A stretch of DNA of 4,692 bases from a virus (IMGVR_UViG_2563366929_000001:1-4692); one strand, 5' to 3'; positions 1 through 4,692 are shown, numbered from the stretch's first letter. Notes: generated by a model not told the origin, from the letters alone. A program made the numbers and translations.

Positions 1-41
1 CGTTGACGGACTTCGGGGGAAAAACGAGTATTTTTAGTCAT
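1..41 (-). CDS. IS3-family transposase OrfA, 5' partial (first 13 codons; remainder lies outside the window)
   Basis: ATG at 41..39 on the minus strand preceded by AGAGG; translation MTKNTRFSPEVRQ matches the IS629-type OrfA N-terminus as I recall it. Mirror image of 4652-4692. Confidence 0.7.
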   Translation of the reverse strand, partial: MTKNTRFSPEVRQ

Positions 42-95
42 CCTGTTTACCTCTTTCTCAGGAAGTTTAGTCTCCAGGATTCCCGGGGCGGTTCA
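1..95 (-). mobile_element. IS3-family insertion sequence (IS629-like), inward-facing orfA-proximal end; element continues beyond the window start
   Basis: Positions 1-95 are the exact reverse complement of 4598-4692 (checked base by base). Read on the minus strand the terminus starts TGAACCGCCCCGGG at position 95, followed by a Shine-Dalgarno and ATG at 41..39. I recognise the terminus and the MTKNTRFSPEVRQ N-terminus as IS629/IS1203-type from memory; no database search was run. Confidence 0.85.
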
Positions 96-134
96 GAGGG
101 TCATTATGGTGAATATGCTGGCTTGCTGGTGGGC

Positions 135-149
135 TATTCCTGCTCTTTA
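135..149. repeat. Direct repeat copy A: TATTCCTGCTCTTTA
   Basis: 15/15 identical to 393-407 on the same strand. Flanks add similarity (GG before, C-TTGC after), giving roughly 27 bp with a few mismatches. On the minus strand it reads KEQE plus a stop codon (TAG). Confidence 0.8.
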
Positions 150-391
150 ACATTGCCATGCCGCGATGTTTTCCAGGTATGCGACCCCATTTTTGTGTGC
201 CTGTACTCTTTAAGGAATTTCTCAAGGACAAACGCACAGGGCGCGAATCTGTCTGACTCATGCTCGTACGCTATCTTTCTGCGCTGTCTTTTCCGTGCCG
301 GTGATGGTGTATTGGTTGATTCTTTGTTGGTCATGGCGCTGCCCTGTAAAATAATGCACCGTAGTTCCTCACACCACGGCACCTATAGTGG

Positions 392-697
392 TTATTCCTG
401 CTCTTTAGCTTTGCGCCGCTGGAGTTCTTCACGCGCGACGGTGACGAGTTGCCCGATTTCCTCGGCAGCTTTGACTCCGATTTTTTCCACCTGCGCTAGG
501 GCATCGAGCGAAGAAACCAGGGGATTTTCTCCGCTTCCTTCTGCCTGGCGGCGGGCGATTTCACCGCGAACGGCTGTAATCACGAAAGCGGCTATTGTTT
601 CCCCTTCCGTTTTCGAATTTTCCATTTCCTCGATTACATCATGGGGGAAGCGGATATTTTTCATTTGCGATCTGCTGTTGATGTTTCCTGTTGCCAT
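392..697 (-). CDS. Small putative DNA-binding regulator, possibly ribbon-helix-helix (Arc/CopG-like); 101 aa, or 90 aa if translation starts at the ATG at 664
   Basis: Intact ORF divergent from the rightward operon. The segment NIRFPHDVIEEMEN followed by GETIAAFVITAVRGEIARR has the strand-then-helix pattern of Arc/Mnt-type proteins (compared from memory). Neither candidate start has a strong Shine-Dalgarno, so the start is uncertain. Fold assignment is inference. Confidence 0.5.
   Translation of the reverse strand: MATGNINSRSQMKNIRFPHDVIEEMENSKTEGETIAAFVITAVRGEIARRQAEGSGENPLVSSLDALAQVEKIGVKAAEEIGQLVTVAREELQRRKAKEQE
393..407. repeat. Direct repeat copy B: TATTCCTGCTCTTTA, overlapping the last codons of the 392-697 minus-strand gene
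   Basis: 15/15 identical to 135-149. On the minus strand it encodes the C-terminal KEQE of the regulator gene; the TAA stop is at 394..392. Confidence 0.8.
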
Positions 698-718
698 CAG
701 AATGTCCGGTTATTTTGA

Positions 719-737
719 GGTGTGTACACATTACACC
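719..737. repeat. Operator-like palindrome 1 (GGTGTGTACACATTACACC), core TGTGTACACA perfectly palindromic
   Basis: Seen directly; GGTGT at 719-723 and ACACC at 733-737 flank the 10-bp palindrome. Overlaps a candidate leftward extended -10 (minus strand TGgTGTAAT, plus coordinates 730-738). Confidence 0.5.
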
Positions 738-759
738 AAAAGGTGTGTTGATAAAACAC

Positions 760-789
760 TTGACACTGTAGCACACTTAAATTTAATTT
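760..789 (+). promoter_or_regulatory. Candidate sigma70 promoter for the rightward operon: -35 TTGACA (760-765), 18-bp spacer, -10 TAATTT (784-789)
   Basis: Perfect -35 consensus. The -10 matches the consensus T, A and final T positions only. Prediction by eye, not experimentally supported. Confidence 0.35.
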
Positions 790-821
790 GTATATACACC
801 AATTGTTGTGGTGTATATACA
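789..821. repeat. Operator-like palindrome 2: 12-bp perfect inverted repeat TGTATATACACC (789-800) / GGTGTATATACA (810-821), 9-bp spacer
   Basis: Exact reverse-complement arms; sits over the predicted -10 and start region of the rightward promoter. Confidence 0.55.
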
Positions 822-887
822 GCAACGCCCCGCAGTGGTGGCACACATGCAGGGCGTCTAACCAAACCGTTAAACGAGGTAACGATT

Positions 888-1253
888 ATGGCTGGAACAC
901 AGCATACCCAAACTCACCCTAAATTTATATACACCTTCCTGGCGGTGCACCGTGATTGCATTGCTGACGGTAAAAACACTGTACACGTAGCCGCCGATAC
1001 GCTGGTTGATGCCTGCGAGATGCTCAATGACATGGGCTATATCTCGGCAACATGGAAAGGGCGCGAAGAAAACACGCTGTTTATTCAGAAATGCGAAAAC
1101 AATTTTATCTGGCGTTTTATCGCCCTGAGTACGGCACAACCGCGCGTGATTCACATCGAGGCCACCAGCGAACAGGAAGCACGCCAGCAATCTCCTGATG
1201 GCTGCGTGATGGTATTCGCTGCCCGTATTCGCCAGGAGGTGGAGCATGTGTAA
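888..1253 (+). CDS. Hypothetical protein (121 aa), first gene of the rightward operon
   Basis: ATG at 888 with GAGG 8 nt upstream (876-879). The stop TAA (1251-1253) overlaps the next gene's ATG (1246) in the 8-nt pattern ATGTGTAA. The 3..1253 ORF in the track is the same frame, but only the part from 888 is credible. No family recognised. Confidence 0.65.
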   Translation: MAGTQHTQTHPKFIYTFLAVHRDCIADGKNTVHVAADTLVDACEMLNDMGYISATWKGREENTLFIQKCENNFIWRFIALSTAQPRVIHIEATSEQEARQQSPDGCVMVFAARIRQEVEHV

Positions 1254-1470
1254 TGCAACATGGCCTGATGCAGCGGTAGACGCTATCAAAACGCTGATGG
1301 ATTCACTTATTGAGATTTCTGCTATCGCTGGTGTGGCGCATAAACACGCAGCCAGAGAATCAGAATGCATCTCCCATTATTTAGCATTTGTGCAGCTAAA
1401 AGCCGATCAGGCACTGGATAAGGCCGGAAAAATTATCATGGCTGATGTGCAGGAGGTGCACCATGCATAA
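1246..1470 (+). CDS. Hypothetical small protein (74 aa); C-terminus (DVQEVHHA) resembles that of gene 4
   Basis: ATG at 1246 with AGGAGG (1234-1239) 6 nt upstream; 8-nt overlaps with both neighbours. Confidence 0.65.
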   Translation: MCNATWPDAAVDAIKTLMDSLIEISAIAGVAHKHAARESECISHYLAFVQLKADQALDKAGKIIMADVQEVHHA

Positions 1471-1828
1471 CCTGTCAATTTCTGACCTTAACAGCATTCA
1501 GTTTGACGAGAAATTTACCGGGCAGTTGCTGGTCAATGTGGAGAACGGGCGCATAGTGCGTAATTACCACCTGCCGGATGGTGCAATTGCCGGAAGCGTT
1601 GAAGCATTGCTGGAGCTGGCGGAACGTGCGCGACTGATTAAGCCGTCAACGTGCCATCACGATGATGATCTGCATTTTACCGGGTGTATGGTGAGTCACT
1701 ACGAAAACGGCGTTGAAGTATCCTGCGAACGTCTGCGTGATGATTGCTGTTTCGGCACACTGCCGGAATTTATCGAATTGCTGACCAGTTGCGGTTATCA
1801 GGTCATTCAGGGGGGTAAACATGCGTGA
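1463..1828 (+). CDS. Hypothetical protein (121 aa) made of two tandem copies of an FTG-motif domain; the C-terminal copy is Cys/His-rich
   Basis: ATG at 1463 with AGGAGG (1451-1456) 6 nt upstream, preferred over the track's ATG at 1445, which has no Shine-Dalgarno. Internal repeat FTGQLLVNVENGRIV / FTGCMVSHYENGVEV. Stop TGA at 1826-1828 overlaps the next ATG at 1821. Confidence 0.65.
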   Translation: MHNLSISDLNSIQFDEKFTGQLLVNVENGRIVRNYHLPDGAIAGSVEALLELAERARLIKPSTCHHDDDLHFTGCMVSHYENGVEVSCERLRDDCCFGTLPEFIELLTSCGYQVIQGGKHA

Positions 1829-2054
1829 TGATCGTTTTAATTCCCTGAAACAGGAGTTTGATGGCGCACCGGAAGATACATCGGGCGCATTGTTGAGCAT
1901 TGCTGACATGATGAAAGCTGCATATTTTCTTATCAATACCAGTGGCTACAAGTCAGAGGGTGAAATGATTCTTAGTATTGCGTCGGACTATGCTGAATAT
2001 GTGGCAGAGACGCGTTACAGAAGAAAATCTCTGGAGGATGTAAGCCATGCATAA
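1821..2054 (+). CDS. Hypothetical small protein (77 aa); C-terminus (LEDVSHA) resembles that of gene 2
   Basis: ATG at 1821 preceded by GGGGGT (1811-1816); 8-nt overlap ATGCATAA with the next gene. Confidence 0.6.
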   Translation: MRDDRFNSLKQEFDGAPEDTSGALLSIADMMKAAYFLINTSGYKSEGEMILSIASDYAEYVAETRYRRKSLEDVSHA

Positions 2055-2247
2055 TCATGAAGCGCATGTACCCGTAGTGCTTAATGTGCCAGATGATTTC
2101 ACCGGACGCGTGCTGGTTTACCTGGATAAAGGGAAAGTGAAATCACAATGCCGACTGAAAAGTAATGAGATTGTTGGTTCTCCTGAATTTTTTTCTGAAC
2201 TTTGTATTCGTGCGGAAATAAAACCGGAACTGCTGACAGGAAAATAA
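2047..2247 (+). CDS. Hypothetical small protein (66 aa), single-copy FTG-motif domain paralogous to both halves of gene 3
   Basis: ATG at 2047 with GGAGGA (2033-2038) 8 nt upstream. By-eye alignment to the gene 3 N-terminal domain gives about 40% identity over ~44 residues (FTGRVLVYLDKGKV..., ...ELCIRAEIKP versus ...ELAERARLIKP). Confidence 0.65.
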   Translation: MHNHEAHVPVVLNVPDDFTGRVLVYLDKGKVKSQCRLKSNEIVGSPEFFSELCIRAEIKPELLTGK

Positions 2248-2251
2248 AACC

Positions 2252-2542
2252 ATGAAAAAGAAATATTCTGGCTTTACTGCCAGCGGCCTCTCTCGGCCTG
2301 AAATCCGCCCCGGTGATATTTTCCGGGACACCAGACGCGGGGGACGGGTGGTTATTCGTCACGTTACGCCAGGCAATATCACCTACCGCCGTGAGGCTTA
2401 CGAATATGACTGCGTAATGCCGCGCCGTCAGTTTGAGCGTGATTTTATTCTGGTGGAAAACAAACAACAGGCAGTGGCGAGACGTGCAGCCACGAATATT
2501 AAAAAAATCCGGGCAATGTTGGTTGCGGGAGGTAAGAAGTGA
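2252..2542 (+). CDS. Hypothetical basic small protein (96 aa); loosely reminiscent of DUF4222-type prophage proteins (low confidence)
   Basis: ATG at 2252, 4 nt after the previous stop, with only a weak Shine-Dalgarno (AGGA about 11 nt upstream). Stop TGA (2540-2542) overlaps the GTG start of the replication gene. The family hint comes from a remembered RPGD...RRG...V pattern, not a search. Confidence 0.55.
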   Translation: MKKKYSGFTASGLSRPEIRPGDIFRDTRRGGRVVIRHVTPGNITYRREAYEYDCVMPRRQFERDFILVENKQQAVARRAATNIKKIRAMLVAGGKK

Positions 2543-4344
2543 AAAACGCACCGAATTTAAAATATCAGCCGAAGGATAAATTCACCGAGGTAATCATTTT
2601 TGCCGGGACGGATGCTTACGCCCATGCTCAACACTGGATTGAAAGCGAAGGACGAAAACACGGCGATAACGTGCCTCCTGTTTACCTGGGGCCAAAGCAA
2701 CTGGCAGACCTGGCGAATATCCGCATTGTCGACGATGAACGCCGCTTTGCGCGTGTCTATCTCGCGGGGGAGATAGAGCCAATCCAGATCAATGCTATTG
2801 CTGAAAAGCTGGCGCTGGCTGGTGTACAGGACGCGAAATTATACAAAGGTATCACCGACCGGGAGCCGGAAAACTGGCGCGACTACCTGCAACGGATCCG
2901 CGAACAGGCAGAGAGTGGGGAAGTTTCAGCGATGAAATTAGCCACAAAAAATATTGACCTATCCAGGCCAGCACTAAATCAGATGGGAGCCAGCCAGAGA
3001 GGGGAAGTGTTACTTGAATATTATGGAAGAGCACTGGCTATAAATGATGATTCTGATGTAGTTCACCATTACAACGGAATTGTCTGGGTGCCTGTATCTG
3101 ATAAGGAACTCCAGCGGTCTATGGCGAAGATTTTTATTGATGCTGGAATCAGTTATTCGCAAAACGCCATTAAATTTGCCGTAGACACAATGAAATTGAG
3201 CCTGCCTGTTATGGGCGGGGCAGACAGGAATCTTATTGGATTCAGTAACGGGGTATTTGATACCCGGACGGGAAATTTTCGGGAGCATAACAAAAATGAC
3301 TGGTTGTTAAATGCCAGTGAATTACCGTTCAGCCCACCAGCAGAGGGGGAAACGCTGGCAACACATGCGCCGAATTTCTGGAAGTGGCTGCGTCGTTCGG
3401 TGGCAGATAATGATCGTAAAGCTGATCGCGTACTGGCGGCATTATTCATGGTACTGGCGAACCGGTACGACTGGCAGTTATTCCTTGAGGTAACAGGCCC
3501 AGGCGGAAGCGGTAAAAGTGTGATGGCTGAGATTTGTACCATGCTGGCGGGTAAGGCCAACACAGTATCGGCAAGCATGAAGGCTCTGGAAGACGCAAGG
3601 GAACGCGCGTTAGTAGTTGGCTTTTCGCTGATTATCATGCCGGATATGACTCGCTACGCTGGCGATGGTGCAGGAATTAAGGCAATTACTGGCGGCGACA
3701 AGGTGGCAATTGATCCGAAACATAAAGCCCCCTACTCCACACGTATTCCGGCAGTAGTGCTTGCGGTAAACAATAACGCCATGTCATTCAGTGACCGAAG
3801 CGGGGGGATCTCGCGTCGTAGGGTGATATTTAATTTCTCTGAGGTCGTACCGGAGAACGAACGCGATCCCATGCTGGCGGAAAAGATAGAAGGCGAACTG
3901 GCGGTAGTGATTCGCCATTTGCTAACACGATTTACCGACCAGGACGAAGCTAAAAGACTACTTTATGAGCAGCAAAAATCAGAAGAAGCGCTGTTGATAA
4001 AGCGCGAAGGTGATTCACTGGTGGACTTTTGCGGCTATCTGATGTCGTTGGTTAAATGTGAAGGAATGATGGTGGGCAATGCGGAAATAGTGCCATTTAG
4101 CCCGAGGCGATACCTGTATCATGCTTATTTAGCCTATATGTCAGCGCATGGCCTGGGAAAACCAGTATCACTGACACGCTTTGGTACTGATATGCCAGGA
4201 GCTATGGCGGAATACGGAAAGGAGTATAAGCGGGCTAAATGCACTAAAGGCCCGGATAAAGGGCGAGTGATAACAAATGTTCTGTTAGATGATGATGCTG
4301 ATGGCTGGTTGCCAGCAGCTACAGGGATTAACGACAGAACATAA
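2539..4344 (+). CDS. Replication protein with P4 alpha / D5-type SF3 helicase (NTPase) C-terminal domain; putative primase-helicase/replication initiator of the element (601 aa, GTG start)
   Basis: Walker A motif GPGGSGKS (nt 3496-3519). Downstream ITGGDKVAIDPKHK (from nt 3685) followed by VVLAVNNN resembles the conserved motifs of the phage/plasmid primase P4-family C-terminal domain as I recall them. GTG at 2539 with GGAGG (2528-2532) 6 nt upstream; the first in-frame ATG is ~130 codons downstream, so GTG is the likely start. I did not recognise a canonical Toprim EGxxD motif in the N-terminal ~320 aa. Confidence 0.85.
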   Translation: MKNAPNLKYQPKDKFTEVIIFAGTDAYAHAQHWIESEGRKHGDNVPPVYLGPKQLADLANIRIVDDERRFARVYLAGEIEPIQINAIAEKLALAGVQDAKLYKGITDREPENWRDYLQRIREQAESGEVSAMKLATKNIDLSRPALNQMGASQRGEVLLEYYGRALAINDDSDVVHHYNGIVWVPVSDKELQRSMAKIFIDAGISYSQNAIKFAVDTMKLSLPVMGGADRNLIGFSNGVFDTRTGNFREHNKNDWLLNASELPFSPPAEGETLATHAPNFWKWLRRSVADNDRKADRVLAALFMVLANRYDWQLFLEVTGPGGSGKSVMAEICTMLAGKANTVSASMKALEDARERALVVGFSLIIMPDMTRYAGDGAGIKAITGGDKVAIDPKHKAPYSTRIPAVVLAVNNNAMSFSDRSGGISRRRVIFNFSEVVPENERDPMLAEKIEGELAVVIRHLLTRFTDQDEAKRLLYEQQKSEEALLIKREGDSLVDFCGYLMSLVKCEGMMVGNAEIVPFSPRRYLYHAYLAYMSAHGLGKPVSLTRFGTDMPGAMAEYGKEYKRAKCTKGPDKGRVITNVLLDDDADGWLPAATGINDRT

Positions 4345-4371
4345 TACGAAATTTATAAGCTGAAACGTAAA

Positions 4372-4572
4372 GGTAGACGGTTGGTAGACAGATTCACTTA
4401 ACCCTCTACCAACCATCTACCAATTAATATTTTGAATTATAAAGATATTTTCAATGTGGTAGAGAGGTAGACAGTTATTTCTATATTCCTAAACCACGGG
4501 GGGTATATAAAAAACAGATAGTTAAGGGGGCATTTTTTAAATTTCTCTTTTAACTGTCTACACTGTCTACCA
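4372..4572. repeat. Iteron array and AT-rich tracts directly downstream of the replication gene; candidate origin of replication (P4 crr/ori analogue)
   Basis: GGTAGA(C/G) in forward orientation at 4372, 4383, 4458 and 4466 (two as GGTAGACAG). Reverse-complement copies at 4405-4410, 4416-4421 and a tandem 9-mer pair ACTGTCTAC at 4553-4561 and 4562-4570. Several pairs are spaced 11 bp apart, about one helical turn. AT-rich stretches at 4421-4457 and 4476-4553. Confidence 0.6.
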
Positions 4573-4597
4573 TTTAGTAAAAATCATTAATTATCAA

Positions 4598-4692
4598 TGA
4601 ACCGCCCCGGGAATCCTGGAGACTAAACTTCCTGAGAAAGAGGTAAACAGGATGACTAAAAATACTCGTTTTTCCCCCGAAGTCCGTCAACG
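4598..4692 (+). mobile_element. IS3-family insertion sequence (IS629-like), inward-facing orfA-proximal end; element continues beyond the window end
   Basis: TGAACCGCCCCGGGAATCCTGGAGACTAAACTTCC... begins at 4598, with Shine-Dalgarno AGAGG and ATG at 4652. Exact reverse complement of 1-95. Confidence 0.85.
4652..4692 (+). CDS. IS3-family transposase OrfA, 5' partial (first 13 codons)
   Basis: ATG at 4652; translation MTKNTRFSPEVRQ, then the window ends. Confidence 0.7.
   Translation, partial: MTKNTRFSPEVRQ

Follow-up and report, generated by a model that had tools for sequence, protein, structure and literature searches.

The replication origins of Gram-negative phage-inducible chromosomal islands (PICIs) lie directly 3' of the pri-rep gene and consist of sets of iterons that flank AT-rich DNA; those of the E. 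coli islands have two iteron sets around an AT-rich region (PMC6092414). The rep-ori segment of EcCICFT073 maintained a thermosensitive plasmid at the restrictive temperature, where deletion of rep abolished plasmid maintenance and deletion of ori significantly reduced it (PMC6092414). The same study (Fillol-Salom et al. 2018, ISME J; PMC6092414) defined the gene constellation of these islands. The alpha protein of P4 combines primase, SF3 helicase and a winged-helix domain (PMC2777425). The Reps of the SaPIs are self-loading helicases with a C-terminal winged helix that binds the iterons; their binding curves agree with one hexamer to either side of an AT-rich centre, and the conserved feature of their origins is that this centre is flanked on both sides by at least two iterons of opposed orientation (PMC9371898).

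Here we describe an array of GGTAGA repeats that follows the replication gene in a stretch of viral DNA of 4692 nucleotides (the window), and which an initial annotation had put forward as a candidate origin. That prediction is supported by a 1KA8-type domain in the replication protein and by arrays after the stop codons of nearly all homologues. From sequence comparison, and by analogy with the systems above, the array very probably represents the rep-proximal two-thirds of an E. coli PICI replication origin. Judged by its sequence, this is an origin of a kind already known and published, a second allele beside the GGTAGA core of EcCICFT073; it would be an ordinary PICI origin and opens no new category.

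The island and its replication protein

Over 96-4692, the window is a 100% match to seven complete E. coli genomes. In the islands L001 and L002 the integrase adjoins tRNA-Thr, an AlpA regulator is present (PF05930, E 2e-19), nearly all genes are on one strand, and no lysis or tail genes are annotated. The island also carries antirepressor-family, YlcI/YnfO, Icd-like and several small genes, followed in order by a DUF4222 gene, the gene for a 601-aa "DNA primase family protein", a 383-bp gap, and ProQ/FinO-family and PerC-family genes. The array is in the middle part of the island, ~8 kb away from the attachment site. Because this constellation (integrase with attachment site, AlpA, mostly rightward transcription) matches the definition in PMC6092414, we class the element, by its gene content, as a Gram-negative PICI rather than a P4-type satellite. 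The two features of the published origins are likewise present: the array is immediately 3' of pri-rep, and its iterons (four pairs in the window) flank AT-rich tracts of 77-89% AT. The P4-like layout initially suggested for the element is replaced by this assignment and by the single array. A DNA relative among phages was also sought, with no blastn match in the phage collection. A 16.5-kb relative, vB_KppS-Ant, the Rep of which is 73% identical, was deposited as an induced prophage.

The initiator-helicase gene pri-rep (2539-4344, + strand; "DNA primase family protein" in RefSeq) encodes 601 aa. The protein is identical in L001 and L002 (WP_001526656.1) and matches phrog_864 "DNA primase" (E 1e-156). 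Its Pfam domains, D5_N (residues 156-285), DUF5906 (SF3 helicase, 319-427) and Pox_D5 (490-567), are those of P4 and poxvirus D5-type SF3 proteins, and its helicase core (residues 301-480) is 64% identical to that of P4 alpha. In a phmmer search of the PDB, residues ~491-592 matched 1KA8, the origin-binding domain of P4 alpha (E 4.1e-20), which by homology places a winged-helix origin-binding domain at 4009-4314 (+ strand). The suggestion that the C-terminal domain binds the array, as in P4, is consistent with this match. Aligned with 1KA8, Rep has a 5-residue insertion in the presumed wing. In the winged-helix topology the beta-hairpin wing comes after the recognition helix, and from the alignment together with this usual topology we infer that the insertion sits in the beta-hairpin wing. 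A single-sequence structure model of the C-terminal domain had a mean pLDDT of 42 and was unusable.

The N-terminal domain of Rep is unrelated to the primase domain of P4 alpha (12.5% identity in the alignment), and residues 1-154 gave no family match in Pfam and NCBIfam. Residues 1-140 (window 2539-2958) move independently of the rest of the protein. For example, the N-terminal domain of the L004 Rep is 94% identical to that of the window and the remainder 37-54%. The N-terminus is longer in the Reps of L014 (784 aa overall) and L028 (792 aa).

Immediately upstream, the DUF4222 gene (2252-2542) overlaps the start codon of the replication gene, and in related islands a DUF4222 gene is found in this position before replication genes of the primase type and of the RepA type alike. 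Cnr occupies that position in P4; DUF4222 as its counterpart was considered and rejected, there being no similarity (E 0.48). Further upstream, the small genes at 1445-1828 and 2047-2247 both match phrog_340, and those at 1246-1470, 1445-1828 and 1821-2054 all match phrog_2512. The small genes of 1246-2247 are mutually related, which suggests a duplicated family.

The iteron array in the window and in intact relatives

Counting both strands, GGTAGA occurs eight times in the 4692-base window, with seven of the occurrences within 4372-4571. In 200 dinucleotide-preserving shuffles of the whole window the expectation was 1.19, and eight was never reached; for GGTAGAS there were 7 matches against 0.46 expected. 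In the array we read eight iterons, four forward and four reverse, of which six are exact GGTAGA(C/G) and two (GGTAGAT and TGTAGAC) are one base off. The initial annotation had listed at least eight copies of GGTAGA(C/G), four in each orientation, in closely spaced pairs with periodicities of 11 bp and 8-9 bp; the count and the orientations stand, two copies being one-base deviants, and the measured within-pair spacings are 11, 11, 8 and 9 bp.

The first iteron begins 28 bp past the rep stop codon (4344), at the same position as in L001, L005 and L033-L037. Pair 1 (4372-4389, + strand) consists of GGTAGAC at 4372-4378 and again at 4383-4389, 11 bp apart. Pair 2 (4404-4421, - strand) consists of GGTAGAG (4404-4410) and GGTAGAT (4415-4421), with the same spacing, and together the two pairs form a 17-nt inverted repeat that is 94% complementary. 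AT-rich tract 1 follows (4422-4457, 88.9% AT), and then pair 3 (4458-4472, + strand), with GGTAGAG at 4458-4464 and GGTAGAC at 4466-4472, 8 bp apart. A central spacer (4473-4555) separates pair 3 from pair 4, which faces it (4556-4571, - strand) and is a direct repeat of TGTAGAC (4556-4562) and GGTAGAC (4565-4571), 9 bp apart. The spacer has G-runs (GGGGGG and GGGGG), A/T runs, a stretch of 77.1% AT at 4505-4552, and two arms, GTAGACAGTTA and TAACTGTCTAC, that are 100% complementary; it is a candidate melting region. Last comes AT-rich tract 3 (4572-4597, 88.5% AT), which is cut by an insertion sequence (IS). As noted at the outset, the stretches between the repeats are AT-rich (77.1-88.9% AT, against a window mean of 52.3%) and the region is essentially without coding capacity: the sole ORF that touches it is a 43-aa minus-strand frame (4285-4416) overlapping the end of the rep gene, and none of the RefSeq relatives examined has a CDS annotated in this intergenic region.

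The left end of an IS3-family insertion sequence, annotated in full and with a programmed frameshift in L002, truncates the array (4598-4692, + strand). It begins at 4598, 26 bp beyond the last repeat as originally read; its first two bases, TG, are also found in the target, which places the junction at 4597-4599. The suspicion that the array had been truncated proved correct. In IS-free relatives, the DNA past window position 4599 continues with the rest of AT-rich tract 3, pair 5 (GGTAGACCGTTGGTAGACAGT), a fourth AT-rich tract and pair 6 (GGTAGACAGTTGGTAGACAGT), which ends ~17 bp before the ProQ/FinO start codon; two iteron pairs and two AT-rich tracts are added. The intact array has 12 iterons in six pairs that alternate with AT-rich tracts, of which the window retains eight, and it fills the 383-bp gap (L001 12046-12428) between pri-rep and the co-directional ProQ/FinO-like gene. 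Its iteron is ~10 bp long, (T)GGTAGACAGT. The seven complete genomes that are identical to the window have lost 1355 bp beside the IS3 element (L002 9299-10608 versus L001 12301-13655), and with them the distal origin, ProQ/FinO, PerC and the first 278 bp of the next gene. Through the IS event, the island of this strain has lost a third of the origin together with its ProQ/PerC genes.

The IHF consensus WATCAANNNNTTR has two matches in the distal AT-rich tracts (L001 12293-12305 and 12372-12384; 0.08 expected from shuffling), both of which are kept in all nine aligned array variants. The IS insertion point of the window falls within the first match, and the IS removes both. We regard these matches as a lead only. 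No DnaA box was found in the array, and a promoter and terminator scan of the intact intergenic region gave nothing above shuffle expectation. A structured RNA was considered since a ProQ/FinO gene follows, and Rfam returned only sub-threshold chance matches in the intergenic region. Amongst nine distinct E. coli versions, 16 of 84 iteron columns (19.0%) were variable versus 63 of 299 spacer columns (21.1%), which gives no support for purifying selection on the iterons within this array type (Fisher p = 0.76).

L033 (within 2546-2940) has an exact extra 11-bp unit, GGTAGACAGTT, in the last iteron pair, and hence 13 iterons; iteron copy number therefore shifts by whole units. Across 24 kb of L001 there is no cluster of GGTAGA or GTAGAC besides the single array. 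Outside the origin, L001 has a single close pair, two forward copies of GGTAGA (6280 and 6313) that are 33 bp apart and just upstream of alpA; it may be due to chance. At the other end of the window, positions 1-95 are the exact reverse complement of 4598-4692, i.e. both ends are the same IS3-family end, inverted. A left IS copy adjoining window position 96 was found in 0 of 5426 complete E. coli genomes. The window may be a short-read contig bounded by the repeat; alternatively, its source strain may carry another copy of the IS upstream of the replication module.

Iteron type and the C-terminal segment of Rep

Comparison of the repeats in homologous elements was a check named in the initial annotation. 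The homologue set comprised 23 loci from a scan of species-representative genomes, supplemented with E. coli variants, EcCICFT073, the induced satellite vB_KppS-Ant and P4. In 25 of the 28 loci the gene is followed by an array, the top 6-mer within 350 bp after the stop codon being more frequent than in any of 300 shuffles. The same 6-mer test on the final 350 bp within rep gave no such word in the 28 loci. Equivalent arrays follow homologous genes in many genera. The most distant homologue, that of Erwinia rhapontici (L028; 50% identity, 792 aa), has no clear array. At L028 4500-4980, only a terminator-like hairpin and two GAACA words were seen.

The arrays fall into six iteron types: GGTAGACAGT, GGTAGACACT, GGTAGATAG, GGTGAACACT (the P4 type), GGTGGAGAGT and GGYGGACAGT. 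The GGTAGACAGT type is found in L001, L005, L006 and L021, the window protein being of the same type; GGTAGACACT in L010, L014 and L015; GGTAGAYAG in L004, L025, L026 and EcCICFT073; GGTGAACACT in L007-L009, L011-L013, L023, L024 and vB_KppS-Ant; GGTGGAGAGT in L017, L022 and L027; and GGYGGACAGT in L018-L020. The alignment used for the co-variation test also includes the window protein, P4 alpha and L016, which has a degenerate array of the GGTGAACA type. The octamer annotated in P4, TGTTCACC, is the GGTGAACA motif on the other strand, and had been given correctly in the initial annotation.

The Rep homologues are mosaics in which the N-terminus and the extreme C-terminus have been exchanged between lineages. 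Their helicase cores are 52-100% identical between pairs, and 78-95% identical to that of the window protein in most scanned loci. For each of 28 proteins, we identified the nearest neighbour by each segment and scored whether it shared the iteron type. The neighbour by the wing and tail (residues 556-601; window 4204-4341, + strand) did so in 27/28 cases and that by residues 481-555 in 25/28. The corresponding values were 18/28 for residues 141-300, 17/28 for the N-terminus (residues 1-140) and 13/28 for the helicase core (residues 301-480). For both C-terminal segments, the observed within-minus-between identity was not reached in any of 2000 label permutations. Since such permutations take no account of common descent, three natural chimeras are the stronger evidence.

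Residues 1-555 of the L027 Rep are 95-100% identical to those of L023 and L024, which have GGTGAACACT-type arrays. Its last 46 residues are like those of L017 and L022, and its iterons are theirs too (GGTGGAGAGT). In the L010 Rep, residues 1-480 are 92-100% identical to L009 (GGTGAACACT), the C-terminal domain is that of L014, and the iterons are GGTAGACACT. In L014, the same helicase core as in L012 and vB_KppS-Ant (GGTGAACACT) is joined to the C-terminal domain of L010, and the iterons are again GGTAGACACT. The wing of P4 alpha clusters with those of the GGTGAACA-type proteins, and the annotated type-1 repeat of P4 is the same motif. The C-terminal domain of the EcCICFT073 Rep is only ~37-41% identical to that of the window, yet the GGTAGA core is the same; the relation of wing to motif is thus not one-to-one. 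The check for co-variation of repeat motif and replication protein was positive, and the expectation of a specificity different from that of P4 is supported: the motif tracks the last ~46 residues and not the core, and the chimeras agree.

We propose from these comparisons that the origin recognised by a Rep is set mainly by its last ~46 residues (the wing), which would travel with the array as a single recombining unit. A bolder version, to which we would give slightly less than an even chance, is that wing and array form one exchangeable cassette, with at least six specificities on a near-constant helicase, and that the wing insertion switches P4-type recognition. Recombination inside the winged-helix domain would then move wing and origin together, and the 5-residue insertion would change recognition from GGT-GA-ACA (P4 type) to GGT-AG-ACA. 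If this were so, the chimeras L027, L010 and L014 would amount to a readable protein-DNA recognition code for initiators of the P4-alpha type. They might further account for the way in which co-resident satellites avoid or exploit activation of one another's origins, the orphan arrays of L003 and L004 included. The comparative set itself narrows the likely specificity determinant of these initiators to the last ~46 residues. In the literature on PICI pri-rep specificity we found nothing later than Fillol-Salom et al. 2018.

Probable origin function and alternative explanations

In CFT073, EcCICFT073 is located beside roxA; its gene order and architecture are those of the island here (int, alpA, Icd-like, DUF4222, pri-rep, origin, PerC). 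The two arrays both start right after the pri-rep stop codon, both have iterons in two orientations around AT-rich DNA, and both have the GGTAGA core. That of EcCICFT073 has 11 copies of GGTAGA(C/T)AG in the 288 bp after pri-rep, against 383 bp for the intact array here, and the iteron flanks, number, order and spacing differ. Its Rep is 33-55% identical by segment (the C-terminal domain being the ~37-41% given above) and is without the wing insertion. That of EcCICFT073 is the sole experimentally tested PICI origin in E. coli; the window copy is cut by the IS.

The likeness to P4 lies in the protein, alpha being homologous in the helicase core and in the winged-helix domain, and in crr, an array directly after the gene with short repeats in both orientations and a spacing of 9-11 bp. 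The initial annotation had both crr and ori following alpha: crr does lie directly after the gene, but ori is on its other side. The differences are several. The P4 iteron is GGTGAACA and that here GGTAGACA, with two central bases changed; P4 has an ori and a crr several kb apart whilst L001 has a single array across 24 kb; crr has two 120-bp direct repeats, which the window array does not; alpha has an N-terminal DnaG-type primase domain, to which the Rep here has no match; alpha is without the 5-residue insertion in the presumed wing; and the gene content of the elements also differs. The window system therefore shares with P4 the SF3 helicase and the 1KA8-like C-terminal winged helix, and lacks the alpha-type primase domain, the TGTTCACC octamer and the separate ori and crr.

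With the SaPIs, the likeness of the array is in layout only: six to twelve iterons immediately after rep, an AT-rich centre and opposed iterons. Here, pairs 1/2 and 3/4 are inverted around 4422-4457 and 4473-4555. SaPI Reps also recognise iterons through a winged helix and have no separate loader. They are from other helicase families, with iterons of 5-6 nt (PMC9371898), whereas the Rep here is of the SF3 P4-alpha type with a ~10-bp iteron.

The origins of iteron plasmids (R6K, pSC101, F, P1) have repeats that are initiator sites beside an AT-rich unwinding region. The array here likewise sets initiator-site repeats against AT-rich DNA and has IHF-consensus matches. It differs in being without a DnaA box and in having iterons in both orientations rather than one direct-repeat series. 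The initiator here is itself a helicase, and so no DnaB loading step is expected.

The working of the predicted origin can be outlined by analogy with P4, SaPI and EcCICFT073, from which the binding, melting and self-loading steps are inferred. A helper phage would induce the island, which would excise. The 601-aa Rep would bind the iterons via its C-terminal winged helix, with the 11-bp-spaced pairs on one face of the DNA. Opposed iteron pairs would set Rep assemblies on both sides of an AT-rich tract, and the tract would melt. The SF3 helicase part of Rep would then load itself as a hexamer, without a separate loader, and primers would come from the Rep N-terminal domain or from host primase. 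The array marks a predicted cis site for building or disabling replicons from this Rep allele.

Other functions for the repeats can be weighed against this. They could be mainly operators, through which Rep or another island protein controls transcription of the ProQ/FinO-like and PerC genes or read-through from rep. The array does occupy the entire gap between two co-directional genes, with the last iteron pair of intact relatives close to the ProQ/FinO start codon (~17 bp), and initiators of iteron replicons often regulate transcription too. We nevertheless consider this unlikely as the main role: the promoter and terminator scan of the intact region gave nothing above shuffle expectation, arrays follow rep whatever the next gene (a capsid gene in vB_KppS-Ant, a hypothetical gene in CFT073), and deletion of the EcCICFT073 equivalent lowers plasmid maintenance (PMC6092414). 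A regulatory side-role beside that of an origin is possible. Less probable again is an enhancer of replication in cis like P4 crr, with the true start elsewhere in the island. Rep is an alpha homologue, and crr sits directly after alpha with the same kind of octamers in both orientations, but the 24 kb of L001 hold no second GGTAGA/GTAGAC cluster, the two 120-bp direct repeats of crr are missing, and the EcCICFT073 rep-ori segment alone maintains a plasmid (PMC6092414). That the repeats are a product of chance or composition, or belong to the IS target or to the integrase system, has only the nearness of the IS in its favour. We give it next to no credence, and it is refuted by the enrichment far above shuffles, by the presence of a longer array in IS-free relatives and by equivalent arrays after homologous genes in many genera (25/28 loci); the mid-island position, ~8 kb from the attachment site, also argues against it.

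A different question is the state of the window copy. The IS3-family element has deprived it of the last four iterons and of two AT-rich tracts; the window copy is thus incomplete and may be weakened or dead. That the truncated origin is silent, a remnant in a decaying, IS-ridden island with deletions, is a real possibility, although we lean somewhat against it. The IS removes 4/12 iterons, two AT-rich tracts and both IHF-consensus matches, the 1355-bp deletion removes ProQ/FinO and PerC in seven identical complete genomes, and a second IS end lies at window 1-96. Conversely, Rep is intact and has the same sequence as in IS-free islands, and four iteron pairs in both orientations remain with two AT-rich tracts. 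What is left also keeps the feature conserved in SaPIs, at least two opposed iterons on each side (PMC9371898). A dead copy is compatible with the array being a PICI origin. One limit applies to the origin assignment itself: arrays of this type persist in L003 and L004, the resident replication proteins of which are of another kind, and the presence of an array is thus not by itself proof of its use.

Tandem replication modules are present in L003 (6997-9430) and L004 (6600-9430). In L003, a RepA-type helicase (AAA_25) and the AAAGTGAGGA iteron array that belongs to it are followed by a ProQ 5' fragment, a 3'-end remnant of the primase gene and an orphan GGTAGAC array. Several cores of that array looked mutated, and decay under relaxed selection was considered; this was dropped because the array is identical to that of L037, where the cognate Rep is present. 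In L004, a primase-type Rep of 582 aa with GGGTAGATAG iterons precedes a RepA fragment, after which comes the orphan array also found in L003. The tandem modules of both islands look like scars of module replacement.
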